From: Schmidtea polychroa
Lineage: Eukaryota
Assembly (NCBI GenBank): GCA_044892525.1
Contig: CM097885.1
Location: 24,368,001-24,432,000 of the forward strand
DNA length: 64,000 nucleotides
Direction: 5' to 3'
The notes under the pieces are model-generated. The model was not told the DNA's origin and searched no databases. It saw nothing but the letters and a program-made list of their open reading frames with translations. Shown in pieces: positions 1 through 64,000 of the stretch. How positions within the stretch are numbered: position 1 is the stretch's first letter; the number at the start of each line of letters is the position of its first letter. The translations under genes were made by a program, and so were the position numbers.

Positions 1-1125
1 AGAGTGTAAAAATGTAGATTTACGCTTACAACTATATCCAAAAATGATTGAAGATGGGCTCCTAGATACTTCAAATTATCCAGTGACCGATCCGTTGTTC
101 TCTGATAAAATTTGTTCTGTAATCGGGAAAGTTAAGGATGAGAATAAAGGAAATCAATATAAAGAATGGGTGTTTCTTCGACCCAAGTGCTACTCACTCC
201 AAGGCGATAAAAACACTCTAAAAGCCAAAGGAATAAGACTAACAAACTCTAATCTTACACATGAAGCCTATAAAAAAGTGTATACTGATGGTGGAACAGT
301 GAGCATCCCACAAAAAAGAATAGGAAGTGTCAATCATCAGTTGTATACTTTCATGACAGAAAGACGAGCTCTCCAATGTTTGGACGATAAAAGGTATTGG
401 TACAATTGTAATGAAAGCTATGCCTACGGTCACTATAAGATTCGTCAAATGCATATTGCAACTGCTATGTCTAGAAATGAATGCAAATCGAAACAAGCAC
501 TTTAACAATTAAATTTATGTGAATAATAAAATATATATTGTGAATTATTTGACTTCGTTAATTAAAATATGTTTTATCATTTAATAATTCATTTGTCCAA
601 TTAATTTAGATAATTAGTTTTAAGTAAGAATTATTATTTATCATGAAAAACTTTGCTTTGTTTTGAAAAATTAATGCCCATTTTATTTTAAATTAACACA
701 GCTTTATTTTATGATTATTACTAATTAAAATTTTATTCAAATTGAAATATTATTGTTACAATTTACACTCTTGTTAGAATATATTAAATGTAAATGTAAA
801 ATAATAACAATAAAAATAAATAATAATAATAGTAGATAAAAAAAATTAAATTAAAAAAAAATTAATTAAATAACGTAAGTAATTAAAATAAAATATTAAT
901 AAATAATTAATTAATTAAATGTAATAAATTGAAAATTAACTAAAGTAATTAATTAAAACAAAAAACATAATAAAATAATTAATTAATAAATTAAAAAAAA
1001 AATTAAATAGAAGTAATAAAATAAATTTAAAAAAAAAATAAATAAAAATGATTCTATTGACCTATATTTGATCTGGACATTGGGATGACCTTGAAAGTGT
1101 CCTGGAGTCCTCACTATATACTACT
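1..1125 (+). mobile_element. Right end of a Maverick/Polinton element (element A), truncated by the window start
   Basis: pPolB C-terminus at 2-505, then a terminus 'agtgtcctggagtcctcactatatactact' ending at 1125. It parallels the right end of element B ('agtgtcctggaggtgacacatcctactact', 33600); ACTACT-3' is the reverse complement of the AGTAGT Maverick end. The TSD cannot be verified. Confidence 0.7.
2..505 (+). CDS. polB: Protein-primed family B DNA polymerase (pPolB), C-terminal fragment
   Basis: Frame is open from the window start. Motifs LDTSNY, VIGKVKDE, FLRPKCYS, KAKGI, DDKR and AYGHY; clearly homologous to the pPolBs at 28059-31974 and 56893-60817. Confidence 0.92.
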   Translation, partial: ECKNVDLRLQLYPKMIEDGLLDTSNYPVTDPLFSDKICSVIGKVKDENKGNQYKEWVFLRPKCYSLQGDKNTLKAKGIRLTNSNLTHEAYKKVYTDGGTVSIPQKRIGSVNHQLYTFMTERRALQCLDDKRYWYNCNESYAYGHYKIRQMHIATAMSRNECKSKQAL

Positions 1126-1577: not shown

Positions 1578-3188
1578 AGTAGTAGGATGTGTCACCTCCA
1601 GGACACTATAAAATAAGTTGTATAAAACAAGTTAAGTAGTATAAAATAAGTATAAATTAAGTTAAAATTTAAGTAGGTCAAGTTAAAATTAAGTAGATCA
1701 AGTTAAAATTATGTAGGTCACGATTATATAGTTTAAAAATATGTAGGTCAAGTTAAAATTAAGTAGATCACGACTATATAATTTAAAATATGTAGGTCAA
1801 GTTAAAAGTAAGTAGATCACGACTATATAGTTTTTAAAATATATATAGGTCAAGTTACTTTAAACATGTGTCACCTCCAGGACACACACATATATATATA
1901 TATATATAAGTAGGTCAAGTTAAAATTAAGTAGATCAAATTAAAATTATGTAGGTCACGACTATATAGGTATTAAAATATTTAGGTCAAGTTACTTTAAA
2001 TATATGTTACCTCCTGGACTCTATGTAATCAAGTATGTCAAGTTAAATTTAGATAGGTCACGACTATATAGTTTAAAAATATGTAGGTCAAGTTCAAATT
2101 AAGTAGGTCACTACTGTATAGTTTTTAAAATATGTTGGTCAATTAATTTAAACATGTGTCACCTCCAGGACACTATATAAATAAGTAAGTCAAATTAAGT
2201 AGGTCACGACTATATAGTTTATAAAAAATATGTAGGTCAAGTTATTTTAAACATGTATCCCTATAATATATACATCATTCAAAAGATATTTGAGAGTAGA
2301 GTACAATGATCATACCTTCAAAGGTGTATGGTGAATCCTTAACCTTCAAAAGGTGCAAAACCCTCGAATTTTTTCAAACTCTATAATACATGTCATTCAA
2401 AAGGTAATTGAGATGTGAGTATGATGGTCATACAATCAAAGGTGTATGGTGAGTCCTTCACCTTCAAAGGGTCAAAAACTTTCGAATTTTTTCAAACTTT
2501 ATAATATATATACATCATTCAAAAGGTATTTGAGAGTAGAGTGTGATGGTCATACCTTCAAAGATGTATGGTGAGTCCTTACCCTCAAGTGTCAAAAACT
2601 TTGATTTTTATTCAAACTGTAAATTGATCATTACAACAAATTTTCAATCCCCAAAATAAATTTCCCAACTCAAAAATTTCCCAAATTTTAAAAATTCCCA
2701 AAAACAATTTTCCCAACTCAAATTTTTTCAAAAATTAAAAAGTCCCAAAAATGAAATTCCCAAAATTTCCCAACTCAAAATTTTTCAAATTTTAAAAAGT
2801 TTTCAAAACTATTTTCCCAAATTTTCCAACTAAATAGTAAAAGAATGTTTTACAAATTTTTTTTTTCCTCGAATACATCAAACCAAAAATTTAACAAGGT
2901 TAGTCACACAAATCTAATTCTGAAATCAAACAAATGAATTTAATAAAAATTAAAATCATCAACATACACAAACGCCGCCTACTCGCCCGCCCGCCGCCCG
3001 CCCCGAAGGGGCTGGCGCGGTAGTTTGTAAATTTGGTTTAGTTTGAATATTATTATTTGCAACATAGTTTTATTATTTACAATATTCAAAGTATTAATAA
3101 CAAAGGTAAAGAAATAAATGTTTATTAAATGTATATAGTATGATACTCATTAATATACATTGAACATGCTTTACATTTGCGAACATTT
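1578..3188 (+). repeat. Left terminal inverted repeat of element B (1611 bp)
   Basis: Near-identical reverse complement of 32060-33600. Built from ~20-30 bp TAGGTCA units, GTGTCACCTCCAGGACAC copies, three ~120-bp units (2262-2620), TTTCCCAA repeats and a GC box. Confidence 0.95.
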
Positions 3189-3682
3189 GAATCATAACAT
3201 TTAGAACATACAATTACATGTCCGCAAGGTAAAAACAAAACCGATACTTGATTTTCTTTACAAATGTAACAAGTTAAATACCTTTTCCTACCATCATTGA
3301 GTTTTTTCGTTAGCTTATTTTCAATCAATTCGGATTTCGATATCCATTCATAAATCAATCTACTACTATATCCTGGTTCCAGCCTTAAATCCATACAATT
3401 CCAAAAGTATTCATTCAATGAATCATTATCTACTATTGCTTTGTCTAAATGCATCAAATAAATCGATAACTTCAAAATGCATTTATTGTAATTAAATAAT
3501 TCAATCAAATATCCAATGGAGGAATGTTTGAAAATTTCTAAAATTTTTATGGTTTCTATTTCAGTGAGAGATTCATGATTGTTCATAAAATCTTCAACGG
3601 TGCAGTTTAAAAACTTGAATGATCTCGTGGTCATCTGTAATTTCTTAATAAATTTATGAAAATACCTATATTCTGCACACAT
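3125..3682 (-). CDS. C-terminal C3HC4 RING-finger protein (IAP/MDM2-type RING), putative E3 ligase; Maverick accessory gene
   Basis: CYICKENQVSVLFLPCGHVIVCSKC...CKAC at the extreme C-terminus; AATAAA overlaps the stop. No BIR motif recognised. Confidence 0.85.
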   Translation of the reverse strand: MCAEYRYFHKFIKKLQMTTRSFKFLNCTVEDFMNNHESLTEIETIKILEIFKHSSIGYLIELFNYNKCILKLSIYLMHLDKAIVDNDSLNEYFWNCMDLRLEPGYSSRLIYEWISKSELIENKLTKKLNDGRKRYLTCYICKENQVSVLFLPCGHVIVCSKCYDSNVRKCKACSMYINEYHTIYI

Positions 3683-3990: not shown

Positions 3991-4371
3991 ATGTCGGAAA
4001 AAGGTAAAATATGAATTTTATAATGTTTATTAATTTATTTAGCATATATAATCAACTTTTTGATTGAAAAATTGGAGGAAATATCTAATGTAAAAATTAG
4101 AGAATTTATGAATGTTCCAGAGAAATTAAAATGGCCGTATTCAGACGATGAAATTAATGAAGATGATATGTCATATGAATCTGAAAATATTTCCCAGCAA
4201 GAAGATGAATGTACTGATTTGCCTAGTGAAGAAATTAAGTCATGTATTGAGAATTCTACAACAGATAAATTACCAAATGAATCTAAACAAGAAGATGAAT
4301 CTATTGTTTTTACTAATTGTATTGATCATATTGCTGAAAATATAATGAAAAGAGATTGTATTGAAGATTAA
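3991..4371 (+). CDS. Acidic hypothetical protein, 113 aa, 2 exons join(3991..4003,4043..4371)
   Basis: ATG TCG GAA AAA G|gtaaaa...tttag|CA joins in frame to ORF 4060-4371 via a 39-nt intron; AATAAA at the stop. Confidence 0.7.
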
Positions 4372-4443
4372 TAAATTTAAAACTTTAGTTATTTTCAATG
4401 ATTTAAAAACACCAAAACACTAATAAAGATGTATTAAATAAAT

Positions 4444-5038
4444 TTAACATGAACAATGTTCCTCTTCAAACTTTTCTTCGGCTTTTATAATTTTCCAAAT
4501 TGGTTTGATTCGGTCTCTGCTTACATTATACCCTTGAATTAATATGGTAACCATGCAGGTTATTTTGCTCATCTTACCATCATTGCGAATCATATCCAAA
4601 TCATATCTAATGAACATATCTTCATCATCAAATTCAATATTTTCATTGATCCTCTGAAATAATTGTCCCAATAGCATCTTGTCGTGAAACTTGATTTTGG
4701 AAAGTCTCACATTGTAGAAACATTTTTCCAGAGTTACTGGTTCCTAACAATAAATAATAATAATAATAAAATCCAAAATAATTTATACAAACTTACCTTA
4801 AATGTATAGGAAATTGGACAATACAAATAATTTAGTTTGTATTGCATGAATTCGACTGGCTTTTTTGTATCCACTCGAACATTGACCAAGGTTTCCGTGG
4901 ATAATGTCGCTTCTTTAAATTTCCTTTTTCCGAATTCCTGAGCGGCATCTGCAATTTTTATCTTCAAAACTCCTAGATTAAAAAATCAATAAATGGAATA
5001 TGTGTAAACGACAACAAACCTGTAATTTGATTATCCAT
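4444..5038 (-). CDS. Hypothetical protein, 164 aa, 3 exons complement(join(4444..4743,4797..4972,5020..5038))
   Basis: GT-AG introns of 47 nt (5019-4973) and 53 nt (4796-4744) fuse ORFs 4734-4967 and 4444-4710 in frame behind MDNQIT. Confidence 0.72.
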
Positions 5039-5229
5039 TTGTAGTAATAATATTTAATAATTTGAACCAGATATTTATACTAATTTCATTGTAAACAAGT
5101 TTCAAGTGACAGGCATGATCAAAACGTGATCAACTAGTTCATTTTATGCTAAATAACAAAGTCTGAAATGATTTATTGTATACAAAGAAATATTATAGGT
5201 TAATTAAGGTTATCACAAAACAAATATAA

Positions 5230-5611
5230 TTATATTTTATTACAACAATACATTTTTCGCAATTCCACAAGTAAAGCATGAATTATTTCTCGTTTCTGTA
5301 GATTTACAAAACATGTACAACTATCATCCCCACAAGTATTCTGTATATTATTTTTACAAAAATCACAATTTTTAACATCATCGGTATAACATGTAATCGT
5401 AGCATGATCCATATGAATTAAATCTATTACATTTATTCCAGTTATTTCATAAATTTTGTAAAACACAACTTCTGGAGCACAATACATTAAGGAATTGTTC
5501 AAATTCGGATAAAAATCTTCAATTTTATCAATCAAAATTTTTAGTATAGTTTCTAAACAAAATCAGTAAATTTAAAATAAAAAAAAAACAGTTACCTTCA
5601 TGTTCAATCAT
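5230..5611 (-). CDS. Cys-rich hypothetical protein, 2 exons complement(join(5230..5552,5596..5611))
   Basis: ATG ATT GAA CAT GAA G|gtaact...tttag|AA ACT joins in frame to ORF 5230-5535 via a 43-nt intron. H/C cluster (CDFC...CGDDSCTC) suggests Zn binding. Confidence 0.6.
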
Positions 5612-6116
5612 TGTTGAATAAATATTCAAGCAAATCCTCGTTACTTATATTTGAAGAAATTGTTAAAGATCCAATCAAATCCTTTACATCGTTTATAATT
5701 CCTTCAACAATAGTATGAAAATCTAAATTTTTAATACCTAGTACAACTATTTTACCACTCGAAAAAATATTTACACATAGTGGATTATATTTTGTATAGC
5801 GCAGAGCGGGAAATAATTCAGGCTCATATATACAATCTCCATCTAATAACTTTGCTAAATTATTCAAATTAATAGATTGTTCAACCTTGGTAGCTATAGT
5901 AAGACTTTGAACTTGAATATCTTTGATATTATATTGCAAATTCTCGAATTCGATAGGCTTCTTACAACCCATTATACGACATTTACCATTTTTGAAAAAT
6001 ATAATGGTATATTTTCCAGTTTTGTCGACATATTGTTGAGGTTTACACTTGGGGAAATTCATCATACCAACAGTTTCCAAAGACACACGACCTCTATAAT
6101 TAATATTTGTCAACAT
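5604..6116 (-). CDS. TATA-binding protein (TBP)-like protein, divergent, Maverick-encoded
   Basis: Two TBP-fold repeats: IIFFKNGKCRIMG, and INLNNLA...YEPELFPALRY...VNIFSSGKIVVLG (cf. TBP YEPELFPGLIY and LIFSSGKxVxTG). First ATG at 6116; an upstream exon is possible. Confidence 0.85.
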   Translation of the reverse strand: MLTNINYRGRVSLETVGMMNFPKCKPQQYVDKTGKYTIIFFKNGKCRIMGCKKPIEFENLQYNIKDIQVQSLTIATKVEQSINLNNLAKLLDGDCIYEPELFPALRYTKYNPLCVNIFSSGKIVVLGIKNLDFHTIVEGIINDVKDLIGSLTISSNISNEDLLEYLFNND

Positions 6117-6143
6117 TTCTAATGAATATTTAAAAAAAAACAA

Positions 6144-6191
<48 letters not shown>

Positions 6192-6194
<3 letters not shown>

Positions 6195-9100
6195 GCCCGG
6201 TTTTAGGCATAGGCGACGTCGGCAGCAGCCTAGGGCGCCGATTTACAAGCGGGCGCCAAATAGTTCTGCTTTTTTTATCAAGTAAATTAAATATTTTATA
6301 AACTTTCTATCTTTATATTGATATATACATATGTATGAATTTGTATATATATGAATTTGTATGTACGTAAAACATGTAATTCCATCGTTGTTTTAGTCCG
6401 ATACCGATTACTTATTTCTTTTAAAATTTAAAAAAATACAACGGAAAATCGATTTAAAAAAATATTTTGCAAGTTCAAAAAAGTTAACTGAAAAGCGGTT
6501 TTAAAAAAAATTTAGCATATAGCATGCTCTGAAATTTTTTTAAATTACGCAATAATTTTTAGTTTTATTTTAAAAGAATAAAGTCACATGCAGTAAAGTT
6601 TTAAAAGACTAAAGTAAATGTTAAAAAAGTTAAAAAATAAATAAACAGAAAGTGAAAAAAAAAATAAAATTTAATTAGTGCAGGGCTCAAATTTTTTTTA
6701 TTTAAAGTATATATAATTTCGGTCGTACTTCCAGTATAATTTTTACATATATACAACACAGTAATTTAATTTATATTGGATTTTTCTACACCTATTATTA
6801 AATCTATTATATTCTATTAATTTTTACTTGAGGTAGCATAATGGCAGATAGAAAAAAATTATCTGGCGCACAAAATAGAAAACGTAAAGCTGAAAAGAAA
6901 AATGAAGAAAAAAAGCAAGAAGGTGCTTTTCTGAAATATATTTGTCGTCAACAATCACAAGATAAAAATCGAAATGAAATGACTCCGAGAAAACAAGTAG
7001 ACTGCAATTTGGAAGAGCAAATGGATAGGAACTCTACAACTAGAAATGCAGAGGTGCCTATTTTGACTGAGTTTCCACATACGAATGTGGAAGAAACTAT
7101 AGAAGAAACTGAAGTTGAAACAATTGAAGAAACTGTTGAAGAACCTATAGAAGAAATTGTATTAGAAACTATAGAAGACACTGAAGAAATTTTAATTAAT
7201 GAAACTTTGGAAATATTAGAAAGCGTAAATTCGAGTCTTGATTATAGTGATCCGGCAACTTGGTTAAATTCACATGACTTACGTTCTGGCCGTTTGAGGC
7301 AAATTTTGGTTGAACACGGACCAGAACAAATTGAAGAATTTGATTTTCCTCAAAATGAGAGCCATAGAAAATTTTCAATGAATTTTTATAGAAGGAGACT
7401 TGCAAATGGAGAAGAAATGCGGCGTCATTGGCTACAGTATTCCAAAACAACTAATTCGGCATTCTGCTTTTGTTGCAAAATTTTTAATAATAACCAGCGT
7501 GTAATACATCTCTCCGATAAAGGATCAAGCGATTGGAAAAATATGTCTGTAATTTTAGAAAGACATGAGAAAAATAAGGATCATTTAATTAATTTTCAAA
7601 CTTGGAAGGAGCTAGAATTGCGTTTAAAAAAGAATAAAACTATTGACCAGGATAATTTGCGTCTCATAAAACAAGAAGAGAGACACTGGCAACAAGTCTT
7701 AGAGCGTCTTATAGGTCTAGTTAAAGTGCTTGCTACGCAAAATATTGCATTTCGCGGAAGCAATGAAAAATTGTATTCTCCTGGAAATGGAAACTTCCTT
7801 AGCTTTGTAGAATATTTGGCCTCTTTTGATCCAATTATGGGTGAGCATCTTCGCAGAATAAAGAACAATGAAACACAAGTTCATTATTTGGGAAAAGATA
7901 TTCAGAATGAGTTAATACAACTTTTATCTAAGAGTATTAAAACAAAAATTTTAAAATCGATTTCCATGGCTAAATATTTTTCAATAATCCTGGATTGCAC
8001 ACCAGACGTTAGCCATACTGAACAAATGACGTTGATTATTCGTTTTGTCCATACAAATACAGAAAATTGTGATTTAGATCCCATATGCATAAGAGAACAT
8101 TTTTTGGGATTTGTGAAACTAACAGATACAACTGGTGCTGGTATGACCGATGAAATCGTTCAGATGTTAGCAGATATGTCATTACCTATTGAGAACTTGC
8201 GTGGCCAAGGATACGATAATGGTAGCAATATGAAAGGCAAAGAAAATGGCGTGCAACGGCGAATTCTGAATCTAAATCCACGAGCACTATTTGTTCCTTG
8301 TTCTGCGCATTCTTTGAATCTGGTTGTTAATGACGCTGTAAGCTGTTGTTTAGATGCTACATCATTTTTTATGTTAGTGCAACGAATATATGTCTATTTT
8401 GCCGCTTCAACACGTCGATGGGAAGTTTTAAAACGTCATGCTTCAAACTTGACAGTGAAGCCATTGAGCGATACAAGATGGGAGAGCCGAATCGATGCCC
8501 TTAAACCTCTACGCTATCAGCTAAGTAAAGTTATTGCTGCACTTATTGATATTTTTCAAGATACTTCTCAAACAGGAGTTTCTGGTAATACTTCACGTAT
8601 AGAAGCACAGGGCCTTGCTAAAGCTATTTCGAATTTCGAGTTTGTAGTTTCTGTTATTATCTGGTATGATATTCTTTTCAACATAAATATTACAAGAAAA
8701 CAACTTCAATCTGAGAAAATTAATATTCAAGATGCTATGAAGCTACTAGAAGATACCAAAAAATTTCTATTCAACTCCCGAAATGATGAAGGTTTTGAAA
8801 GAATATTGGTAGATGCGCGAGAACTTGCTGAAGAATCAGAAATTTCCCCAATCTTTAAACAAACTCAGCGTATCAGAAAACAAAAAAAACAGTTCGAATA
8901 TGAAGCCAACGATGAGCCCATTCAGAACCCAAAAGAAAAATTTAAGATCAGCTTTTACTTCGCAGTTTTGGATAGAGCTTTAAAATCTGTTGAGCAAAGA
9001 TTCACCCAAATGTCAACGATAAATTCAACATTTGGATTTCTATACAACATACATAATTTGCAATATATTTCGTCAAAGAAAATATTAGAGGATTGTCTTA

Positions 9101-9648
9101 AACTGGAAAATTTTTTACGGCACGATGATTCTAAAGATATTGATGGTACAGATTTATTGAACGAATTGATATTTATAGCTAGACATATTCCAAAAAACTT
9201 ATTGCCGGAAGATGTACTTAATTATATTTGTAAAAATAATATAGTGGACAGCGTTCCAAATATATTTGTTGCTTTGCGAATTTTATTAACCCTACCAGTT
9301 TCTGTGGCAAGCGGTGAACGAAGCTTTTCGAAGCTTAAACAGATCAAAACATATATAAGATCTACAATGTCACAAGAACGGCTTGTGGGATTAGCAATAT
9401 TGTCGATTGAACACGAAATGGCGCGTGATATAGATACGAAGTTGCTGCTTGAAGATTTCACTAAACTAAAAGCACGAAAAATTAAATTTTAAATGGTTTT
9501 TGTTTTCATATATATTTTTGTGTAATAAATAAATGAAGTATAGTTATTTTATTTTCATTTACTTCTTTAATTATTGGGTTTGTTTCTAGACTAGAGGCGC
9601 CATTTTTTTAGTTTGCCTAGGGCGCCAAATACTCTAGCGTCGGGCCTG
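6192..9648 (+). mobile_element. Autonomous hAT DNA transposon (3457 bp) nested in element B
   Basis: Ends CAGGCCCG...CGGGCCTG, subterminal CCTAGGGCGCC motifs at both ends, 8-bp flanks ATATATAT in a (TA)n tract, intact transposase. Confidence 0.93.
6841..9492 (+). CDS. hAT transposase (ZMYM1-like group; TTF-type Zn finger, RNase H-like DDE core, C-terminal dimerisation domain), 883 aa
   Basis: WLQYS..AFCFCC, FSIILDCTPDVSHTEQ, GQGYDNGSNMKG, CSAHSLNL, TRWESR, SVASGERSFSKLKQIKTYIRSTMSQERL; ORF uninterrupted. Confidence 0.96.
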   Translation: MADRKKLSGAQNRKRKAEKKNEEKKQEGAFLKYICRQQSQDKNRNEMTPRKQVDCNLEEQMDRNSTTRNAEVPILTEFPHTNVEETIEETEVETIEETVEEPIEEIVLETIEDTEEILINETLEILESVNSSLDYSDPATWLNSHDLRSGRLRQILVEHGPEQIEEFDFPQNESHRKFSMNFYRRRLANGEEMRRHWLQYSKTTNSAFCFCCKIFNNNQRVIHLSDKGSSDWKNMSVILERHEKNKDHLINFQTWKELELRLKKNKTIDQDNLRLIKQEERHWQQVLERLIGLVKVLATQNIAFRGSNEKLYSPGNGNFLSFVEYLASFDPIMGEHLRRIKNNETQVHYLGKDIQNELIQLLSKSIKTKILKSISMAKYFSIILDCTPDVSHTEQMTLIIRFVHTNTENCDLDPICIREHFLGFVKLTDTTGAGMTDEIVQMLADMSLPIENLRGQGYDNGSNMKGKENGVQRRILNLNPRALFVPCSAHSLNLVVNDAVSCCLDATSFFMLVQRIYVYFAASTRRWEVLKRHASNLTVKPLSDTRWESRIDALKPLRYQLSKVIAALIDIFQDTSQTGVSGNTSRIEAQGLAKAISNFEFVVSVIIWYDILFNINITRKQLQSEKINIQDAMKLLEDTKKFLFNSRNDEGFERILVDARELAEESEISPIFKQTQRIRKQKKQFEYEANDEPIQNPKEKFKISFYFAVLDRALKSVEQRFTQMSTINSTFGFLYNIHNLQYISSKKILEDCLKLENFLRHDDSKDIDGTDLLNELIFIARHIPKNLLPEDVLNYICKNNIVDSVPNIFVALRILLTLPVSVASGERSFSKLKQIKTYIRSTMSQERLVGLAILSIEHEMARDIDTKLLLEDFTKLKARKIKF

Positions 9649-9734
9649 ATATATATATATGTAATATTATAGAGTAATTAAATCATTTTATTCTTTACGA
9701 TATAAACAAAATAACTTTTAAATGAATATTAAAA

Positions 9735-10361
9735 ATGGAACTAAGAAATGATGCTGTATATCAAATAGTCGGACCAAGTGGTAGCGGCAAAACTTTGTTT
9801 GTTTGCAAATTACTAAAATCACATTTATTCAAATCAAAATTTAACAAAATTTATTGGCATCGAGGTGCTGATCAAGAACACGGATTGACTCAATCAAGTT
9901 TCTGTAAATTGAAAAATATGAAAATAGTAGAGGGATTTGATAAAAATTGGTCCAGTAGACTAAAGAAGGGGGATGTCATAATTATTGATGACTTGTATCA
10001 AGAGGCTAATAAAGAAAAGAATTTCAATAATTTATTTACCAAAATCAGTAGACACGTTGGTGTAACTGTTATTTTTATAACTCAAAATCTATTTCATCAA
10101 GGCGGTGCACATAGAACTCGTAATTTAAATGTTCAATATTTGGTTGTTTTTAAAAACCCTAGAGATGCAACAGTTATAGATTTTCTTGCAAGACAAGCAT
10201 ATCCAAATAATCGTAATTTTCTGATTAATGCATTTCAAGATGCTACAAAACAACCTCATGGATATATATTTCTTGATTTCACACAACAGTGTCCTGATGA
10301 TTTACGAGTGAGAACTGATATTTTCAATAAAGAAGGGTCAATGGTTTATAAACAAAGTTAA
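9735..10361 (+). CDS. Genome-packaging ATPase (A32-like, FtsK/HerA superfamily)
   Basis: Walker A GPSGSGKT, Walker B IIIDD, SRH..IFITQNLF, FKNPRD, PHGYIFLD as in Maverick ATPases. Confidence 0.93.
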   Translation: MELRNDAVYQIVGPSGSGKTLFVCKLLKSHLFKSKFNKIYWHRGADQEHGLTQSSFCKLKNMKIVEGFDKNWSSRLKKGDVIIIDDLYQEANKEKNFNNLFTKISRHVGVTVIFITQNLFHQGGAHRTRNLNVQYLVVFKNPRDATVIDFLARQAYPNNRNFLINAFQDATKQPHGYIFLDFTQQCPDDLRVRTDIFNKEGSMVYKQS

Positions 10362-10379
10362 AACCTGGATTGACTGATC

Positions 10380-10892
10380 ATGTTTTTGAGAGCGAGAGTT
10401 AAAAATCTTAGAAACGATATTGAAAAAGAAAAAATTAGTGTTGCACCAAAAACTAGTTATACACCTCCTAAAATACTTGTTACAGAAAACTTTCCATCAA
10501 TGAATCTCATTTCAAAAAATCCAAAATCTAAACCAAATAAAAAGCCTAAACAAGTAAAAACAATAAAAAATCATCGTAGTTTTCCATTTTTTAATGCATT
10601 GTTAAAGGCACCTAGCATGAAAAGAATGACTATTTTGCAATCATTTCCAAATTTTGTTGTAGATGATTTACTTGATATTATACTCAAAGTAGTTAAAGGC
10701 AAGACTATAATTAGCAAATCTGACAAAATTATTTTAAAAAAGTACCAAAAACCTCTGTTGACGCTAGTAAATAATAAAAATCGTAAGCAAATGAGAAAAA
10801 TTATATATAAACAACAAGGAGGGTTTATTGCTGCATTAATACCATTGGCATTATCATTATTAGGTGGAGCAGGTCTACTAAAATCGTCATAA
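10380..10892 (+). CDS. Basic putative virion core protein ending in QQGGF plus a hydrophobic tail
   Basis: Lys-rich. The C-terminal QQGGFIAALIPLALSLLGG resembles the GG-F/hydrophobic ends of adenovirus pX-like and Maverick core proteins. Confidence 0.7.
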   Translation: MFLRARVKNLRNDIEKEKISVAPKTSYTPPKILVTENFPSMNLISKNPKSKPNKKPKQVKTIKNHRSFPFFNALLKAPSMKRMTILQSFPNFVVDDLLDIILKVVKGKTIISKSDKIILKKYQKPLLTLVNNKNRKQMRKIIYKQQGGFIAALIPLALSLLGGAGLLKSS

Positions 10893-10895
10893 ACA

Positions 10896-11123
10896 ATGGG
10901 TGCTAATCCTTCATTACCTAATGTAAATTTTAATTTTAAATCTTCATGTTGTAATGGAGAAGATATGGACGAATCCAAAAGACGAAGCAGGTTTTGGTGG
11001 AGTCGAAAAATTAAAGAAAAGAGTTCAGAATTCGAAGATAGAAACCCAGAATTGGTTATCAGGTCAGCTCGCGTACAGTTTGAACAAGCCAATGCTGAAA
11101 AGATTTCCAACAAGACCATATAA
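10896..11123 (+). CDS. Small putative N-myristoylated protein overlapping the integrase 5' end
   Basis: ATG 3 nt after the previous stop; MGANPS fits MGxxxS; SSCC motif; last 170 nt overprint the integrase in another frame. Confidence 0.45.
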   Translation: MGANPSLPNVNFNFKSSCCNGEDMDESKRRSRFWWSRKIKEKSSEFEDRNPELVIRSARVQFEQANAEKISNKTI

Positions 11124-12010
11124 AACATTTGATATTGATGATTTATGGCAAATGGATTTGATGGAAATGATACCATATTCAAAGATTAATAAAGGATACA
11201 AGTATATTTTGACATGCATTGATGTTTTCAGTCGTTTTGCTCGAGCAATTCCTACCAAAACTAAGTCGGCCGAGGAAATATCCAAAGCAATTAAACTCAT
11301 GTTTACAGATGGATATCCAGACAATTTAAAAACAGATTTAGGTAAAATATTTGTAAAATCAAATTCATTATTTTTTCTTAGGAAAGGAATTTTACAACAG
11401 TAAAGTGAAACAAATCCTGGATAAACTCAAAATCAACCATTACTCTGTCCATTCTCAATTCAAAGCTGCTCTTGTTGAAAGATTTAATCGAACTCTGAGA
11501 GACAAGCTAAAAAAGTTGTTTGTACATCAGGGTAATAAGACATGGATAAATGTTTTACCTCAAATTATATATGGTTATAATCATTCATCACATCAAGGTT
11601 TGAAAGGTTTGAGACCTGTAGATATTTCATCAAAAACATCATTGAGATTGAAAAAGGTTGAAAAAATTAAAAAACCAAAATATAAAGTCGGTGACCATGT
11701 TAGAATTAGTAAAATTAGCGCATCACCATTCATTAAAAATTTCGATACAAATTGGAGTGATGAAGTATTTGTAATTTCAAAAATAAATACTAAGCAGAAT
11801 CCTGTAATGTATGTCGTCAAAGATAGTGATGAAAATATTGTACAAGGGAAATTTTATGAGCAAGAATTACAAGTTATTCCTCCCCCAAAAGTATTTAGAA
11901 TTCAAAAAATACTGAAAACTAAAAATAAAGGCAAGGATAAACAATACTATGTCAAATGGCACGGTTATCAAAAACCGTCATGGATATCGTCAAAAGACCT
12001 AGTAAAATAA
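10954..12010 (+). CDS. int: Retroviral-like DDE integrase with C-terminal chromodomain, 338 aa, join(10954..11341,11382..12010)
   Basis: WQMDL (D); TDLG|KEF (D), restored by removing the 40-nt GT-AG intron 11342-11381; VERFNRT (E); chromo-like IQKILK...YYVKWHGY..SWI. Confidence 0.93.
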
Positions 12011-13010
12011 ACTTTTATATTATTTTACCAAGCAATAGCTGTCCACTTATTCATCCAGATAATAAAGCCAGCAAATTCAGGGTCAATCTTCAAAATCCTA
12101 TATATTTGGATAATAGCTGGGAAGTTGCTCTGTTGGATTTTACATTTGTATACCAAGCCTTTCCATTTTATAGTAAGGCTAAAATTGGATACAAAAAGAA
12201 TGAGTGGCAGGATAGATTATTGTCTATGATCATTGATAATGCAGATGATGAAGTTCGGTTGTCTAATTCAACTGATTCAGCTGTGAAAATGTGTATTAAC
12301 CATCCATATATAGTAGTTGAATGTAAACATTATCCTTTTACTGTAAAATTTGATAGTTTGGAAATGGCAAAACGATTGGAATTAAAAACCCAAAGTCATA
12401 AAGTTCATTCCGATAAATTCACTGTGCTACGACCGGGATATTCCAAAACTGGACAGCGATTTGAACCAATTTTATTTACAGTTTCATATCCAGGTATAAG
12501 TCTGGTACATTTGAGTTCAAAGATAATTTATACATTTCGAAATTGGATGAATTGCAGTCATATTTAAAACAAAGTGGTTTATTTAAATCATTGGAAATAT
12601 CAGACAGATGCAAATTCAGTTTAAATCCCGAATTTACTGAAATTATTTTTGATGCAAATCTAATAAAAACATTAGGATTATCAAAAGCAACATATGCTCA
12701 AGATGATCAAGGTGTAAATACACCGAAAATAATTAAACTTCACCAACAAATGTTCATCTATAGTAATATTGTTGATCCTGTAATTGTTGGCGATTCTTTG
12801 GTCCCACTCCTGAAATCGGTTTGGATTGAAAAATATGAACATGATGAAGTTGTCAATATAAATATCGATAATCCCATGTATTTACCTGTTTCAACCTCAT
12901 GTATAAACAATATAGAAATAAATATACGTGATGATTCTGGTAAATTAATTGAATTTCCAAAAGATTCAAAAACTCATTTGACGCTACATTTTCGTAAAGT
13001 AGATGGCTAA
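11956..13010 (+). pseudogene. Minor capsid (penton-like) protein, frameshifted near 12500-12545
   Basis: N-terminal FYIILPSNS...WEVAL and C-terminal MFIYSNIV...VGDSLVPLL...IEINIRDDSG...LHFRK lie in two overlapping frames. Start may be at the later ATG (11980). Confidence 0.8.
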
Positions 13011-13371
13011 TTCGGATATTATTAGTATGTACAGTGGTAGCCAATCTGGCGGTGAATTACCATATTTTATCGGTAAACAGTACGGATCAGGATGGTTACG
13101 AACAATTGGTAGATTTGCACTTCCTATTCTTAAACGTATTGGTAGTTTTTGTATGAAAACTGCAAAAGACGTTATTATGAATGATCAGAAAATATTACCA
13201 TCCCTAAAATCTAATGCTTTGGCTGAATTAGGAAAAGTTATACCAAGTGTTGCTGGTATGTTTCAAAAAGATGAAGCCCCAGCTCCAGCACCTGCTCACA
13301 AACGTAAAAAACACCGATCATCACGTATAAACAAACGAATGAAAGGCCATGGAACTATATTTGCAAAATGA
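13003..13371 (+). CDS. Putative virion core/membrane-active protein with QxGG and QxGxG motifs
   Basis: QSGGELPYF, QYGSGWLRTIGRFALPILKRIG (amphipathic), basic tail ending in IF; lies between the two capsid genes. Confidence 0.75.
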   Translation: MANSDIISMYSGSQSGGELPYFIGKQYGSGWLRTIGRFALPILKRIGSFCMKTAKDVIMNDQKILPSLKSNALAELGKVIPSVAGMFQKDEAPAPAPAHKRKKHRSSRINKRMKGHGTIFAK

Positions 13372-14593
13372 TTTGTGGTAAATCCGAATTATGTATATTT
13401 GATAGACCAAGTCCCCAAGCGGTGATTGAATTTGGGGCGTTTGAGGAAGTTTTTCCAATGAATTCAATTACTGATAGTAGAAATGATGTATAATTTTACA
13501 TCAATGGTTCTCAAACAGAATATTTAGATTTGAACGATATTTTATTGTCTGTTCAGATCAAGGTTATAGATAAAGATAAAAAAGCTTTGGGTGATGCTGC
13601 TGATGCAATACCGAACAATTTCATGTTTCATACTCTGTTTAAAGATGCAGTTCTCGGATTTAATAATAGCAAGATTGAGGGTGGTAATAATACATTCATT
13701 CACAAGGCTTTGATAGAAACTATTTTAAATTACAATTCCGTTACTCAATTCCGATTGGTCTTACTCCAATGGGATATTCTGCAACCGACGATGAAAGAAA
13801 AAAGTGGATTAAAGGCTCAAAAACATTCACCATGTGCTCATCGTTACAACTCGATTTTATGGATCAACCGAAATATTTGCTTCCAGGAGTTAATGTCCAC
13901 ATTCGATTGAAAAGATCCGATTCTGCATTAACTCTTACTAGTGCTACAGGTGCACCAATATGTCAATTAGTTGATGCAAAATTATTAGTGAGAAGAGTTC
14001 GAGTAGACCCATCAGTATTAGCGGGTCATCAATTAGGGCTTAATTCGAAACATGCAATTTATCCATTAAAAACAAAGGAAATTGTACAATTTGCAATTGC
14101 TAAAGGTGCTTCATCATTCTATAAAGAACAGATATTTGGTGATAGAAGAATGCCTAATTTTATTCTGGTAACATTTCAAAGTGAAGCACAATATAATGGA
14201 TCATATACTGCTTCCAGCACAATTTTCAAAAACTTTGCTGTTACTTCATTAACTCTGTCGAAAAATACTGATTATCGAGAAACATATACTCAAGATTTCG
14301 ACACTGATAATTACTGTTCTACATATATGCAAAGTATTGTTAGAAATCTGGGATATTTAGATAAAAATTTGAATTGTGGAATAACTCTTGAAGAATTCAA
14401 AACAAAATACCCATTTTTCACATTTGTTTTAGCCCCCAATTTTGATTTAAATCAGAGTCAATTACCACAAAACGGGAATTTACGATTGGATATAAAGTTT
14501 GCGAGAGCCATTACAGAACCTGTGCATGTTATAATATATGGAGTATTTGAAAATGAAGTTCAAATTACTGCAAACAGGACCGTGCTGGTATAA
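13368..14593 (+). pseudogene. Major capsid protein (double jelly-roll), disrupted
   Basis: MICGKSELCIF start at 13368, in-frame TAA at 13491-13493, EYLDLND, frameshift near 13740-13765 (duplicated CAATTCCG), C-terminus GNLRLDIKFA...VIIYGVFENEVQI. Confidence 0.87.
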
Positions 14594-14997
14594 ATGTATA
14601 CAGAAATACAGAAAGTTGTCATGGAGTAAGTTGTTTTTTATACTGTTTAATTTATTAAAATAGTTCTGTTCAGGTTAATCGAATTGGAAAACAAATATTA
14701 AGAAATGAATTTTTAGGAGTTTTTCCTCTCGATAAAATACCATTTTTGAAAAATAATCAAGCCATAATCGTCAATACCCATTCATCTCATCTTGGCGGAG
14801 AGCATTGGATTGCAATCTATGTAAAACCAGATAAGATACATGTATTCGATCCTATGGGTTTCTATTATCCTGCTTTATTGGTTTCGAAACTACAAACAAT
14901 GGGCAAACCTATTGTATATAATAAAACAATGTATCAACACCCTTTAACTCGTACGTGCGGACAACATTGTTTAGGATGGCTTATGTCTATTAAATAA
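14594..14997 (+). CDS. Adenain-like (C5/Ulp1-fold) cysteine maturation protease, join(14594..14625,14664..14997)
   Basis: FLGVFPLD, IVNT...GEHW (His), FDPMG (Asp), YQ...TCGQHC (Cys). A 38-nt intron gives MD|SVQVNRIG in frame. Confidence 0.9.
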
Positions 14998-15047
14998 TAA
15001 ATGTTTTTATAAAAATATGTTTTTATTATTTTATAATTATTATTATG

Positions 15048-15107
<60 letters not shown>

Positions 15108-15273
15108 GTTTTATTATTTTTATAATTATTATTATGTTTTATATTATTACAATAATAACAAAGTCCGTCATGACGGTGCATGCTCCGTGCATGATTAACA
15201 AAGGCATGATATTATCACGTTATAAACAATTGTAATACAAATTTCATCATAATTATTTTATTACAATTTTAAA

Positions 15274-15666
15274 ATGTCATCAATTAATACTAAAATCAAT
15301 GTGGTTCTTTCGAGAAATGGTAAGGATTTTTAATTACTTATTTATATTAAATAATTAAATTTACAATTAGAAACTCGTACCGTTAACTCGTCAGTCTTCA
15401 ATAGGCGATTAGGTTCTGGAAATGATGGAAATGGTAAATTTATAATTATTATAAATACTTTTATTATTATTATTATCTTTATTATTTAGACAATTATTTT
15501 GGTGATTGGGCCGCAATTACCGAAAATGACGACATATTAGATATTTCAAACATATTCCAAAATGGTAATTTATTAGTTTAATTAAAATTGTATTACCATT
15601 AACATTTTAGAATCTTCTGTTTCGAATAACGAATCAAAATGTATGTTTCATTTTATTAATATATAG
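15274..15666 (+). CDS. Four-micro-exon ORF absent from the ORF track (15274-15319, 15371-15433, 15490-15564, 15611-15640 or -15666); small gene or 5' exons of pPolB
   Basis: Three phase-1 GT-AG introns (51, 56, 46 nt), each after AATG; spliced frame is stop-free: MSSINTKINVVLSRN/ETRTVNSSVFNRRLGSGNDGN/DNYFGDWAAITENDDILDISNIFQN/ESSVSNNESK. Confidence 0.65.
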
Positions 15667-15867
15667 TTTTTAATTAATTAATAACTTAATAATATAGATT
15701 TTATGTAAATATAATGTAAATATAACTTTATGTAAATTATTTCAGTAATCATTAAAATAGTAATTGAGTAGGTAGTTAGGAGCCCGCTGCAACAATGGGG
15801 GTACCCCCCCCCCCCCCTGTTGCACGATTTTTTTATGTTGCAACTTTTTATTACGCAATTGTTCCAC

Positions 15868-16560
15868 ACTATAGTGAGGGGGTCTCGATGGTCCTGGGAT
15901 TTTCAATACAAAAAAATTTTTTTTCAATACAAAAACGATGGTCCTGGGATTTTCAATACAAAAAATTTTTTTCAATACAAAAAGGCGGTCTCACTAAAAA
16001 AGCATGGAATTTTCAGACTATAGTGAGGGGGTCTCGATGGTCCTGGGATTTTTAATACAAATAAAATTTTTTCAATACATAAATCCGACTACCACTAAAA
16101 AAGCATGGAATTTTCACACTATAGTGAGGGGGTCTCGATGGTCCTGGGATTTTCAATACAAATAAAATTTTTTCAATACATAAATCCGACTACCACTAAA
16201 AAAGCATGGAATTTTCACACTATAGTGAGGGGGTCTCGATGGTCCTGGGATTTTCAATACAAATAAAATTTTTTCTATACAAAAATCCGACTATCAATAA
16301 AAAAGTCAAGGATTTATCACACTATAGTGAGGGGGTCTCGATGGTCCTGGGATTTTCAATACAAAAAAATTTTTTTCAATACAAAAAGGCGGTCTCACTA
16401 AAAAAGCATGGAATTTTCAGACTATAGTGAGGGGGTCTCGATGGTCCTGGGATTTTCAATACAAAAAAAAATTTTCAATACAAAAATCCGACTACCACTA
16501 AAAAAGCCAAGGATTTTTCAGACTATAGTGAGGTGAGTCTCCTTGGTCCTGAGAAATAGG
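15868..16560 (+). repeat. ~101-bp tandem repeat (ACTATAGTGAGGGGGTCTCGATGGTCCTGGGATTTTCAATACA...)
   Basis: Unit starts at 15868, 16017, 16118, 16219, 16321, 16421 and 16522; mirrored at about 27050-27565. Confidence 0.9.
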
Positions 16561-16584
16561 TGGTCTACACTAAAAACGTGGTAA

Positions 16585-17230
16585 ATTTTTCAATTAAAGT
16601 AAATAATGGTCCAAATTTTTCAATTACAGTAAATAATGGTTCTAAAAAATTAAATTACAGTAAATAATGGTTCTAAAAATTAAATTAAAGTAAATTATGG
16701 TCCAAATTTTTAAATTACAGTAAATTATGGTCCAAAAAATTGAATTAAAGTAAATTATGGTCCTAAAAATTAAATTACAGTAAATTATGGTTCTAAAAAT
16801 TAAATTACAGTAAATTATGGTTCTAAAAAATTAAATTACAGTAAATAATGGTTCTAAAAAATTAAATTACAGTAAATAATGGTCCTAAAAATTAAATTAC
16901 AGTAAATTATGGGTCTAAAAATTAAATTAAAGTAATTATGGTCCAAATTTTTCAATTACAGTAAATAATGGTTCTAAAAAATTAAATTAAAGTAAATTAT
17001 GGTCTAAATAAGTAAATTATGGTTCAAATTTTTCAATTAAAGTAAATAATGGTCCAAATTTTTCAATTAAAGTAAATTAAGGTTCTAAAAATTAAATTAC
17101 AGTAAATAATGGTCCAAATTTTTAAATTAAGTAATCAATGGTAAAAAAATTTTAAATAAGTAAATTAAAGTAATAATTTTTAAATAAGTAAATTAAAGTA
17201 ATGTAATAAGTAAATTAAAGTAAGATTTTA
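16585..17230 (+). repeat. ~30-bp AT-rich tandem repeat (AATTACAGTAAATAATGGTTCTAAAAAATTA)
   Basis: About 20 degenerate units; mirrored at about 26330-27025 and present at about 61500-61960. Confidence 0.9.
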
Positions 17231-17364
17231 AAATTTATTAACAAAAAGTTGAAGGTGTTTGAGAATTGAAATTTTTTAATGAAAATTTTTATGGAATAAT
17301 TTTTTAAGTAATTTTTAATGGAAATTTTTATGAAATATTTTTCAAAGACAAATTTTAATAATAA

Positions 17365-18450
17365 TTCAACAACAAACCAACAACTTAGTACCAACAACCA
17401 GTAACTTACGAACATGTTTTAACAACTAGATACCTACAACTAGTTACTAACAACTAGTTACCTGATATCAACTACTCACAACCAACAACAACCAGTTACT
17501 AAGCATTATTAACCAACTACTAAGTACCTACAACTAGATACCACGTACTAAATAACTCTCAAACAACCAAGTACCTCCAACTAGATACTAACAACTAGAT
17601 ACCAAGTACCTACAACTAGATACCACGTACTAACTGACTCTCAAACAACTAGATACTAACAACCAGTTACCTGCTACCAAGTACTTACAACTAGTTACTA
17701 ACAACCAACCAACTAGGTACTAGATACCAAGTACTAACAACCAACAACAACCAGGTACTAAGCATTATCAACCAACTAAATACTAAGTACTAACAACCAA
17801 CCAACTAGGTACTAGATACCAAGTACTAACAACCAACAACAACCAGGTACTAAGCATCATCAACTAACTACTAAGTACCTACAACCTACAACTAGATACT
17901 AACAACCAGTTACCTGATACCAAATACTTACAACTAGATACCAAGTACTATCAACCAAAAACAACCAACCAACTAGGTACTAGATACCAAGTACTAGCAA
18001 CCAACAACAACCAGGTACTAAGCATTATCAACCAACTAAATACTAAGTACTAACAACCAACCAAATAGGTACTAGATACCAAGTACTAAGCATTATTAAC
18101 CAACTACTAAGTACCTACAACCAACTAGCTACCACCTACCAAGTACCTACAACTAGATACTAACAACCAGTTACCAAGTACCTACAACCACCTACCCATT
18201 AACTAGCTACAACCAGCTAACAACTAGCTACCAACTACCAAGTACTAACAACCAACTAGCTACCACCTACCAAGTACTAACAAACAGTTACCAACTACTA
18301 AGCATTAATTACCTACAACTAGTTACTAACAACTAGATACCAAGTACATACAACCAACAACTAAGCATTATCAACCAAGTACTAACAACCAAGTAACTTA
18401 CCTAGTACTAAGCACTGTCAACTAGATACCAAACACTTACAACCAGATGA
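17365..18450 (+). repeat. Strand-biased mosaic repeat of short words (CAACTAGATAC, CAAGTACT, AACAACC, TAAGCATT)
   Basis: C/A-rich top strand; mirrored G/T-rich copy at about 25035-26120; related block at about 62250-63420. Confidence 0.88.
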
Positions 18451-18743
18451 CCACATGAAATTATTGGTTAAGTATGAAAATAAGGATTATATTTAGTTGT
18501 TAAGTAAATTATGGTGTAAAATTAAGAAATAAAGAATAATTAGGTAAATTAAAGTTAAAAATTTTAAATAAGTAAATTAAGGTTCAAAATTTAAAATTAA
18601 GTATCCAATGGTTCAAATTTTAAATTAAAGCTAAATAAGTAAATTAAAGTAAGATTTTTAAATTTATTATCAAAAGATTGAATAACCACCAACTTTTTTG
18701 AGAAATGTAATTTATAATGAAAATTTAAATGGAAATTTAAATG

Positions 18744-18825
<82 letters not shown>

Positions 18826-21204
18826 TATACTAATAATTCAACAGTTACCAACAATCGGTTACTGATTATTTTTTAACTAGGTGCTAACAAATACTTACAC
18901 CATGATACCACGTACTAACTAAATCTCAAACAACCAGATACTTACAACTAACTACTAAATATTCTTTATTGTATTTTATGAAATGCTTTTTAAATTAATT
19001 TTTTATCTATCTTCAAAAATATGTTTAATTACAATCAATAGAAAACCTTTTCAAATTTAACAAAAATGTTGATTTTCATCAAAAAACCACAACTCATCAC
19101 CACGTGGAATTCAAAATAATTTTAATTACAATGAAAGACTAATGAATTCTAATTTACAAAACATTCTTCTTTTAAATGAAAACTACTGACTTATTATTGC
19201 AAAGTAAAAATCGCATTCAATAAATACTTATTGTTGATCAGTTTTATTATATATACTCTTAGTCTATCCGACAGGATGTTTTGACCCCCTAAGGGTACAG
19301 GTCGTAAGGGCACTGGTCGTAAGGGTATTAGTCGTAAGGGTACTGGTCGTAAGGATATTGCTAACTCTCAACCCCCCATCTACCAATTAACTAGATACTA
19401 ACAATCACCATAAAAACCCATCGAGAAATTAACAAATATCAACCTACAACTATATAACAACAATCAGTAAACAACACTATACCAACTACCAAATATAAGA
19501 TACCAACAACTTAATATCATCTACCAGTAACTATAAACACGTATTTTCAATTAGATACCAAGTACTTACAACAATATACCAAACGCTATCAGTTAAGTAC
19601 TTACAACAAGATACCAAAACTATCAGCAAAATACTATCAACCAGATACCAAGTACCAACAATCAACTAACAACACATAAAAATAATAGCAATTAAATACA
19701 AAATATTCTTCATCGCATACACTATTTTCTTATCAAAATCTAAAAAGTCAACCAACTACTTACAACCTACAACTATGTATTAACAAATTGATCTTTAAAA
19801 GCAAACACTCATCACTTGAAAATATTTGATGAAAAATTAATTGAACTCAAGGAACTTTTAAGATTTACCAATAACTAGGTAAAAATTGATTAAATTATTG
19901 TAAAAATTTAAATTATTCTAAATATACTAAATAAAAAAATATAATTAATAGACAAGAAAGAATTCTAATCATTAATCATCCAGTAAATAAAAAAATACTG
20001 ATCATTCAAGTTGAATCAACTAAGATATTAAATTAATAAGATAAGATTTAGTAGATAATTGATTTAGATTGAATAAATTAATTGAAATAAAATTAATTTT
20101 AATTTTTTTTAAAAAGTAATACATGTACTCAAATTGATTGACTGATTTCTCAATATATTCAAAAAATCAGTATAAATTCATTACAATTATCAAAGTCAGC
20201 AATCTACAATAAAAATAATTATCATTAAATTCCAAAAGAGACTAGATAACTAATGATAACATCTAACAAACCAGTAAATTCATTTAAATGGCAATAATTG
20301 GTATATCCAAGTGAATTCTCCAATAAAATCATCTAAAAAGAATCATTTCCCCCTAAATATATCAATATTTAAAGATTGGTATTTTAATGATAAGTACTTG
20401 TTAAAGATCATATATTCACCTCAAACTAACAAGATTCCTTAAAATCCCCTTAAATGACTATATTTCTATCCTTAATTCATATTATTACAAATATCATCTA
20501 AAAAGCATCAAATTTCCCTGAAATATATCAATATTTAAAGATTGATATTTTAATGATAAGTACCCGTAAAGGATCATATATTCCCCTCAGACTAATAAGA
20601 TTGCTTAAAGTCCCATTTAAATGACTATAATTCTAACTTTAATTCCTATTATCACGAATATTTCCCTATAAAACATGTAAAATCATTAACCCTAAATAAT
20701 TTATAAAATCTAATGATAAAACTGGTTATAATTAATTTTTTGTTAATCACTGTACTCGATATTTTAAATAAATATTACTACAATATAACTGACTAGGTCC
20801 CATTGAAAGATTAAATTTATCCATTCAATAAAATATATTTCTTCAAATGATCATTTTTACCGATATTCAACCGATTTAATCATTAATTAAAATCAAGATT
20901 TCTTCCAATAAAGATCAATTTTATTTAGTCAATGTTTTAAGTTCATATTTCTCAACTTTTGTCGTTGTCCGTCTAAATAAAGATAAAAATAATTTAAAGT
21001 TGATATCAATCCCATTTATCTGTAAAGTTTTCATTGTCAAAACCAAGTAAATCGATCATTATCCCTACTTAATAAAACATAAGTCTAAATTAATATACAA
21101 TGGATTAATCACAACCTAATAAAACGATATAATTATTATTGATACATAACTGACTAATTGACATTTCCCTTAAAACAATGATATTTTACCAACATCACCA
21201 TTAA

Positions 21205-21510
21205 AAAAATCATATATTCCCATCTTAACCCATGTCTCATTAAATTTAACCGACTATATTCCCATCTTAACCCATCCTTCATTAAATTCAATCGACTATA
21301 TCTCCCTTACAGTGATATATTTCCATCTTATCTGATCTCTCATTAAATCTAACCGACTATATCCCCTTAAAAAATTATATATTCCCATCTTATCTGATCT
21401 CTCATTAAATCTAACCGACTATATCCCTTTAAAAATCATATATTCCCATCTTAACCCATCCCTCATTAAATTTAATAACCGACAATATCCCATCTTATCC
21501 GATCTCTCAG
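21205..21510 (+). repeat. ~40-60 bp tandem repeat in the foldback spacer (ATATTCCCATCTTA...TCATTAAAT...CCGACTAT)
   Basis: 5-6 degenerate units visible. Confidence 0.75.
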
Positions 21511-21739
21511 CAAATATTTCTACCCTTTTAAACATCTATCCGATTATATCCCTTATTTTCCCTAAAGATTTCACCCACTTGAGCCCTTTAATATATATCA
21601 ATCCTCTTAAAATCCTCAGAGAACTTCAAAAATATGACTTTTAATTAATTGCTATAGGAACCAGACAAATAATAAGAGCCCACTAAAAGATCAAAATTCA
21701 CTAAATTTTCTACAAATATTTACCATCAAATACTGGATA

Positions 21740-21793
<54 letters not shown>

Positions 21794-24676: not shown

Positions 24677-24740
<64 letters not shown>

Positions 24741-27853: not shown

Positions 27854-28026
27854 GTACCAATAATAATAATAATAACTTAGCATTATTTAGCATTAACTAA
27901 TTATTTTATAGTTGATAATATTATAGACAAATTTTAAATGAAAGATTAAATTACATTTATTATTATTATTATTATTAAATAAATAATACATTTTCATTCA
28001 ATAAATAATTATTTAAATTTTATTAG

Positions 28027-31974: not shown

Positions 31975-32059
31975 CCATTGGATAGAGCTCTTCGAGACCT
32001 TTTTAATGAACCATTATTCAATATAATCTATCGAAGGTAATCCTTAAAATTCAAATTTA

Positions 32060-61130: not shown

Positions 61131-64000
<2,870 letters not shown>

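Follow-up and report, generated by a model that had tools for sequence, protein, structure and literature searches.

Core genes of Maverick (Polinton) elements are usually treated as intronless (PMC8097293; PMC10120064; PMC8547959; bioRxiv 2022.07.12.499685, all sources cited here and below being represented by the available parts of their text). Does this rule hold for every lineage? The question is raised by a 64,000-nt stretch of Schmidtea polychroa DNA (contig CM097885.1, positions 24,368,001 to 24,432,000; hereafter the window, in whose numbering coordinates are given), which carries a 32-kb Maverick at 1578-33600. An original prediction, made from the letters of the sequence, had placed nine GT-AG introns of 38-56 nt in the genes of this element, one of them beside a catalytic Asp of the integrase. 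All nine segments were recovered at the predicted positions, and comparison with related loci indicates that the clade to which the element belongs departs from the intronless rule of Mavericks.

Each of the nine segments begins with GT and ends with TAG on the coding strand, and all of them combine a GT donor, a YAG acceptor and a T-rich 3' part, as U2-type introns do. Their GC content is 7-26%, against 21-38% in the flanks, the base before the donor is G in eight of nine, and five are first introns located at most 46 coding nt after the ATG. With the exons of each gene joined in order and an X written at every junction, stop-free frames run from ATG to stop across introns 1-4 and introns 5 and 6, so that the predicted restoration of an open frame holds for these six. 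After segment 9 (15565-15610) the frame lasts only ~18 codons before a stop, and for this reason the acceptor of intron 9 is uncertain.

The loose pattern of AT-rich GT..AG segments is by itself not significant: 38 and 51 donors were counted against null means of 28 and 45, and these counts were matched by 7 and 24 of 100 shuffles, respectively. A strict rule (GTAA donor, TAG, GC ≤20%, T-rich end) finds seven sites in two regions for which the null means are 0.1-0.2; each of the seven belongs to the nine and lies on the coding strand. The rule finds no site in the open reading frame (ORF) of a hAT transposon nested in the element or in either polymerase body. The significance of this rule is overstated, as it was written after the introns were seen and its null ignores local AT clustering. 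The segment statistics are only suggestive, and it is the comparison with relatives that carries the case. By this comparison the integrase and protease introns appear well supported as spliceosomal, whereas the other seven, four in accessory genes and three in a putative polymerase leader, are argued for by frame logic.

Introns of the integrase and protease genes

Intron 5 (11342-11381, plus strand, 40 nt, phase 1, with a 5-nt direct repeat at its ends) divides the gene of an rve integrase with a C-terminal chromodomain into exons 10954-11341 and 11382-12010 (plus strand). It sits two codons past the second catalytic Asp (Asp128), and its removal joins NLKTDL at the end of exon 1 to KEFYN in exon 2, rebuilding the integrase motif as had been claimed. 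No gap is found within five columns of this junction in 56 of 59 full-length homologs, and 52 of the 59 have Gly at the junction column. When intron 5 is retained, the frame closes at 149 residues and so includes neither the catalytic Glu nor the chromodomain.

The relatives compared were 80 metagenome loci, several of which repeat one sequence. The integrase junction is spanned by 71 of them, with an excess of 0 nt in 54 and of -1 to +12 nt in 17; an excess of ~40 nt is present in none of the 71, including the sister group L001-L003 (68% identity). Two contigs of a DNA sequencing run (X2), at ~86% identity, cross intron 5 with 0 and 1 gaps, and in two contigs of another run (X7) the TTAG of the acceptor is shared but the AT-rich sequence leading up to it differs. 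Fixed in the family but not present beyond it, the integrase intron is best read as a recent, family-wide gain. At the junction codons L001-L003 read GAT TTA GGT AAA, which contains AG/GT, and intron 5 begins GTAAAA; the intron likely arose by duplication of the AG/GT site with AT-rich filler. Because this site lies at the same codons of the intronless sister, the intron position would be explained without a link to catalysis. Nearness to the catalytic Asp, highlighted in the original prediction, was rejected as a special feature, the AG/GT proto-splice site accounting for the position.

Intron 6 (14626-14663, plus strand, 38 nt, phase 2) splits codon 2 of an adenovirus-like cysteine protease gene (exons 14621-14625 and 14664-14997, plus strand), and a message that retains it has two codons and then a stop. 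The protease was matched in 11 of the 80 loci. Five of these (L007, L009, L049, L013 and L014), comprising three distinct lineages, show ATG-NN/GTAAGT ... AG/T at the protease start, with introns of 39, 39, 39, 47 and 47 nt, respectively; their proteases are 52-57% identical and the AT-rich intron interiors have diverged. Conservation of position and donor while the interior is free to change is what selection on a spliced intron would leave behind, and the protease intron is likely so constrained. In the remaining six loci the intron is absent, an in-frame ATG being found there in five, with L073 unclear.

A quick integrase tree was built from 68 of 81 rows, with 13 short matches left out. 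The window element and the five loci with the protease intron fall in one 16-row clade (Shimodaira-Hasegawa-like approximate likelihood ratio test support 95), and the six intron-free loci fall outside it. Conserved across this clade, the protease intron appears to predate its diversification and hence to be old. Among 13 protease protein matches inspected by eye, six have N-termini that likely represent intron read-through and end in Ser at the acceptor, three start directly with Met-Asn/Asp-Ser/Thr, and four are uninformative. No intron-sized excess was seen within the clade in the ATPase, the capsid or the polymerase body. Overall, the comparisons point to one old, conserved intron and at least two recent gains in the clade.

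Accessory genes and a probable polymerase leader

By frame logic, an acidic orphan gene (exons 3991-4003 and 4043-4371, plus strand) is interrupted 13 coding nt after its ATG by intron 1 (4004-4042, plus strand, 39 nt, phase 1), inside which three DNA contigs have a 3-nt deletion. On the minus strand, a three-exon orphan gene (exons 5020-5038, 4797-4972 and 4444-4743) contains intron 2 (4744-4796, 53 nt, phase 0) and intron 3 (4973-5019, 47 nt, phase 1, GC 26%), the latter with the weakest donor, GTTTGT. A query with exon 4447-4743 returned only a 95%-identical sister fragment among 1.84 billion representatives, and one match to a repeat protein was judged to be chance. A Cys-rich orphan gene on the same strand (exons 5596-5611 and 5230-5552), whose ATG overlaps the end of a TBP-like gene, is split by intron 4 (5553-5595, minus strand, 43 nt, phase 1); no family was found for it in Pfam or, with exon 5233-5550 as query, in the ESM Atlas, where all scores were under 0.85. 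Sister copies have a 1-nt insertion and a 5-nt deletion inside intron 4, and sister-copy indels also occur outside introns, at 5073 and 5252.

The TBP-like gene itself (5604-6116, minus strand), which is common to several related loci, is intronless in the window. The relative L005 has a 40-nt intron of its own in this gene (L005 376-415); neither the window nor the five other loci in which the motif was located share it, and it is taken as an independent gain. Intron 5 and the L005 intron are both 40 nt long and agree at 18 of their last 19 bases (15 of 17 before the YAG). A shared introner origin of the two is unsupported (family-wise p of 0.08 for the last 20 nt, and 0.32), and near-identical copies at unrelated sites, as introners would leave, were not found: among 171 pairs from the window and the 80 loci, none was significant beyond ATT-rich likeness.

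More intron-shaped segments occur in accessory genes of relatives, at L005 830-869, 1303-1342 and 43-83 (minus strand) and at L013 5651-5698. One more candidate, at the beginning of the RING gene of L008, could not be confirmed. In the window, a 70-nt segment of the same style lies at ~35962-36031 (minus strand), before a host-type ORF and downstream of a leucine-rich repeat exon at 38856-39794.

Introns 7 (15320-15370, 51 nt), 8 (15434-15489, 56 nt) and 9 as listed (15565-15610, 46 nt), all on the plus strand and in phase 1, accompany three phase-1 micro-exons of 46, 63 and 75 nt (15274-15319, 15371-15433 and 15490-15564, plus strand). The micro-exons lead into no sizeable local ORF. The main exon of a protein-primed polymerase B gene (28027-31974, plus strand) has no conserved start, and the two divergent polymerases of the window become alike precisely from an AG that they share (28025-28026, and near 60818 on the minus strand). 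Because there is no local ORF and the polymerase likeness starts at this AG, the micro-exons likely form the 5' leader of the polymerase, which lies 12 kb downstream. The donor of intron 9 is good and may open a long intron that extends to 28026; 15611-15640 may be a fourth exon or belong to this long intron. A search with polymerase residues 1-75 among longer proteins gave no homolog with the leader, and by eye the L007 polymerase appears to have its own Met at the place of the leader junction.

Nested in this likely long leader intron is a gene-less foldback element of 11.9 kb (15767-27689) with AGTAGG ends and a target-site duplication (TSD) of TAATTG; with the insert removed, the third leader donor is 539 nt from the AG at 28025-28026. 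A related gene-less foldback, also with Maverick-like AGTAGG ends, lies at 61131-64000, so that the two are found in two divergent Mavericks. Both are located 300-350 nt upstream of a polymerase 3' splice site, that is, inside the likely leader intron.

The Maverick element and its neighborhood

That the element is a Maverick, as had been proposed, is borne out by its ends and its genes. The ends read AGTAGT...ACTACT, with a perfect 6-bp TSD (AATATT) on both sides, and the long terminal inverted repeats (TIRs; 1578-3191 and 32057-33600) are identical at 1537 of 1540 aligned bases. Exon 1 of the integrase matches rve (PF00665) above the cut-off, and Maverick integrases are among its homologs. 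An A32-like packaging ATPase (9735-10361, plus strand, intronless) matches PF04665 (E 1.5e-7), and the protease matches PF00770 (E 1e-6). No Pfam match to PF03175 was found for the polymerase segment 29716-31971 itself; it was counted as the Maverick polymerase through 74-75% DNA identity with a second copy at 56896-59222, which does match PF03175. The double-jelly-roll major capsid gene (13368-14593, plus strand) contains no intron. The capsid fold was predicted on L009, a relative that is intact and shares 54% identity with the fragment in the window, and the model (predicted local distance difference test 83.6) matches the capsids of iridovirus, PBCV-1 and mavirus with E of 1e-15 to 1e-17.

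This copy is a defective one. A stop at 13491 and a frameshift near 13740 interrupt the capsid gene, the polymerase is broken near 29685-29715, and a gene at the putative minor-capsid position (11941-13010, plus strand), with relatives in the loci, has a frameshift near 12500. In L003, L007 and L052 two tandem genes resemble this last gene, not one. The near-identity of the TIRs (99.8%) and the perfect TSD, despite the broken capsid and polymerase genes, suggest recent mobilization in trans. The remaining features are a RING-finger gene (3125-3682, minus strand, PF13920), in which no intron was seen, and the hAT transposon (6192-9648, plus strand), which has landed in a (TA)n run with the TBP-like gene on one side and the ATPase gene on the other, retains an intact ORF of 886 codons and is unrelated to the introns. 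Beyond the element, a second decayed Maverick polymerase (56893-60818, minus strand) and the 3' end of a third (1-455, plus strand) make the window a Maverick cluster. No relatives of the element were found in a viral contig collection or among phages.

Intron gain, probable splicing and known systems

We consider it likely that the nine segments are ordinary short introns, constitutively spliced by the host and gained repeatedly in a Maverick lineage transcribed in the nucleus. In the order that we infer, the intron splitting protease codon 2 would have come first, before the 16-row integrase clade diversified, followed by the recent integrase intron, likely through AG/GT duplication with AT-rich filler, and by an independent gain in the TBP-like gene of L005. 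Elements would be transcribed in the nucleus, with their short AT-rich introns removed constitutively by intron definition. Such a lineage would likely need the host spliceosome for its integrase and protease, and probably for its polymerase. The five start-proximal first introns may have been kept because 5' introns raise expression, as they do in nematodes, plants and mammals (PMC12055998). Host-adapted gene structure, a further part of the original prediction, finds no support in intron size: planarian short introns peak at 45-85 nt (PMC13594981), and four of the nine are shorter.

Several observations weigh against this explanation. The window copy is defective, so not all of its frames are under selection; collinearity with homologs was found for the integrase and protease introns only, introns 1-4 and 7-9 being argued from frame logic; and the tree is a quick one in which several loci repeat one sequence. 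Four sequencing runs were examined, three of them RNA by guess and one likely DNA. Among the 15 joints listed (255 more were unlisted), none is a spliced joint at any of the nine introns; the depth of the listed joints is at least ~460, which exceeds that of the guessed-RNA runs at most sites. A 1717-nt contig of run X1, which is RNA by guess only, covers 4034-5748, retains introns 2-4 and carries all of the X1 depth at 5252, 5558 and 5579 (in or near intron 4). Its end coincides with a poly-T loose end of run X6 at 4034, as that of a polyadenylated unspliced transcript would, and position 4034 is possibly the end of a minus-strand read-through transcript or a site of internal priming. Splicing is likewise absent from the X7 contigs that reach the integrase acceptor. 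Transcript-like evidence consists of these contigs, which drop minor forms, and it is negative; the unspliced contigs may be DNA, or nascent or read-through RNA of silenced copies.

These contigs would also fit regulated splicing, in which retention would be the default and splicing would take place only in certain cells or states, so that integrase, protease and polymerase are gated. Intron 3 of the P-element gates its transposase in this manner. Retention would abolish both integrase and protease, all visible transcript-like contigs are unspliced, and planarian Polintons are targets of PIWI-interacting RNAs and are desilenced on differentiation (PMC8532177). Yet the splice sites are for the most part strong and of an ordinary kind, the integrase intron is a recent one that 71 relatives manage without, and the contigs may have the other sources just named, which makes such a switch quite unlikely. 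The possible splicing control of integrase and protease raised in the original prediction is not supported. It is unlikely, too, that only the integrase and protease introns are real and that, in the accessory genes and the leader, the pattern merely picked out AT-rich spacers or decay. Loose GT..AG segments are as common in shuffles, the X1 contig retains introns 2-4, homologs of the accessory genes were not found and the donor of intron 3 is weak; however, the strict rule matches listed segments only and only on the coding strand, each segment brings an ATG to an ORF that otherwise has its first Met 21 or more codons in, and L005 has the same start-proximal layout in two accessory genes. The sister-copy indels inside introns 1 and 4 argue in the same direction, yet such indels occur outside introns as well.

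Post-integration damage to a dead element, whether by insertions specific to this copy or by introner hits, would be in keeping with the stops and frameshifts of the capsid and polymerase genes and with the two nested transposons, and introners do land in Maverick-like proviruses of dinoflagellates (PMC11957031). We regard it as very improbable, and for introns 5 and 6 as largely refuted. The protease intron holds its position among proteases at 52-57% identity, being present in five loci of the clade, and the integrase intron is present in the 86%-identical copies, so neither is copy-specific; the introns are not copies of each other (the best pair, over the last 20 nt, has a family-wise p of 0.08), and no 13-mer of the integrase intron recurs elsewhere in the window. 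A bolder proposal, which we hold to be doubtful, is that the clade is being "eukaryotised": it would go on acquiring short introns, for the most part just after start codons, and these would mark its messages as host-like against small-RNA silencing, with a splicing switch besides, and the long leader intron would provide a safe landing site for gene-less satellites. If this were true, the splicing switch would hold integrase, protease and polymerase off until activation of the element.

Constitutive splicing of ordinary short introns, the explanation that we prefer, bears on how Mavericks are recognized. Surveys of Polinton-like viruses (PLVs) that call genes with prokaryotic predictors, treating them as intron-free (PMC10120064), would mis-score an intron-bearing clade, and where "intact" Mavericks are defined by intronless ORFs (PMC8097293), its members would pass for decayed elements or be given wrong starts. 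In surveys of protists, introns are assumed or reported to be absent (PMC10120064; PMC8547959), and "no introns" was the statement of Kapitonov and Jurka 2006 as cited in PMC8097293. The introns described from cryptophyte PLVs are group I introns (PMC12220804). The available parts of PMC10748475, PMC11296320, PMC8502044, PMC6431247 and bioRxiv 10.64898/2026.07.28.741278 yielded nothing about core genes with spliceosomal introns. In the text available, we found no published report of conserved spliceosomal introns in a Maverick integrase or protease, only introner and cargo cases, and Repbase, subscription papers and supplements may record such introns. Likely read-through of the protease intron is already seen as false N-termini in protein matches. 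Intron gains that can be dated are rare, and this clade provides one that is old and at least two that are recent; for the site of a gain, a sister sequence that lacks the intron is available. An intron-bearing clade implies nuclear, spliceosome-dependent expression of a capsid-encoding element.

Adenovirus, a related nuclear DNA virus, has spliced polymerase and IVa2 messages, and the start codon of its polymerase lies in a small upstream exon. Its introns are long and alternative and belong to large transcription units, whereas those of the window are 38-56 nt and occur gene by gene. Vertebrate Mavericks share with the window element the TIRs, 6-bp TSD, protein-primed polymerase B, rve integrase, ATPase, protease and jelly-roll capsid; their intact copies have eight conserved ORFs, all intronless, whereas in the window the integrase, the protease and likely the polymerase are split, and the TBP-like and RING genes are a further difference from them (Barreat and Katzourakis 2021, PMC8097293). 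In nematode Mavericks introns occur in captured host cargo and the core is intronless (Widen et al., bioRxiv 2022.07.12.499685), in contrast to the introns in core genes seen here. In the maverick-polinton-like proviruses of dinoflagellates, spliceosomal introns also lie inside Polinton-like elements; those introns are repeated introner copies acquired mostly after integration (PMC11957031), whereas the introns of the window element are unique and one of them is conserved in position across its clade.

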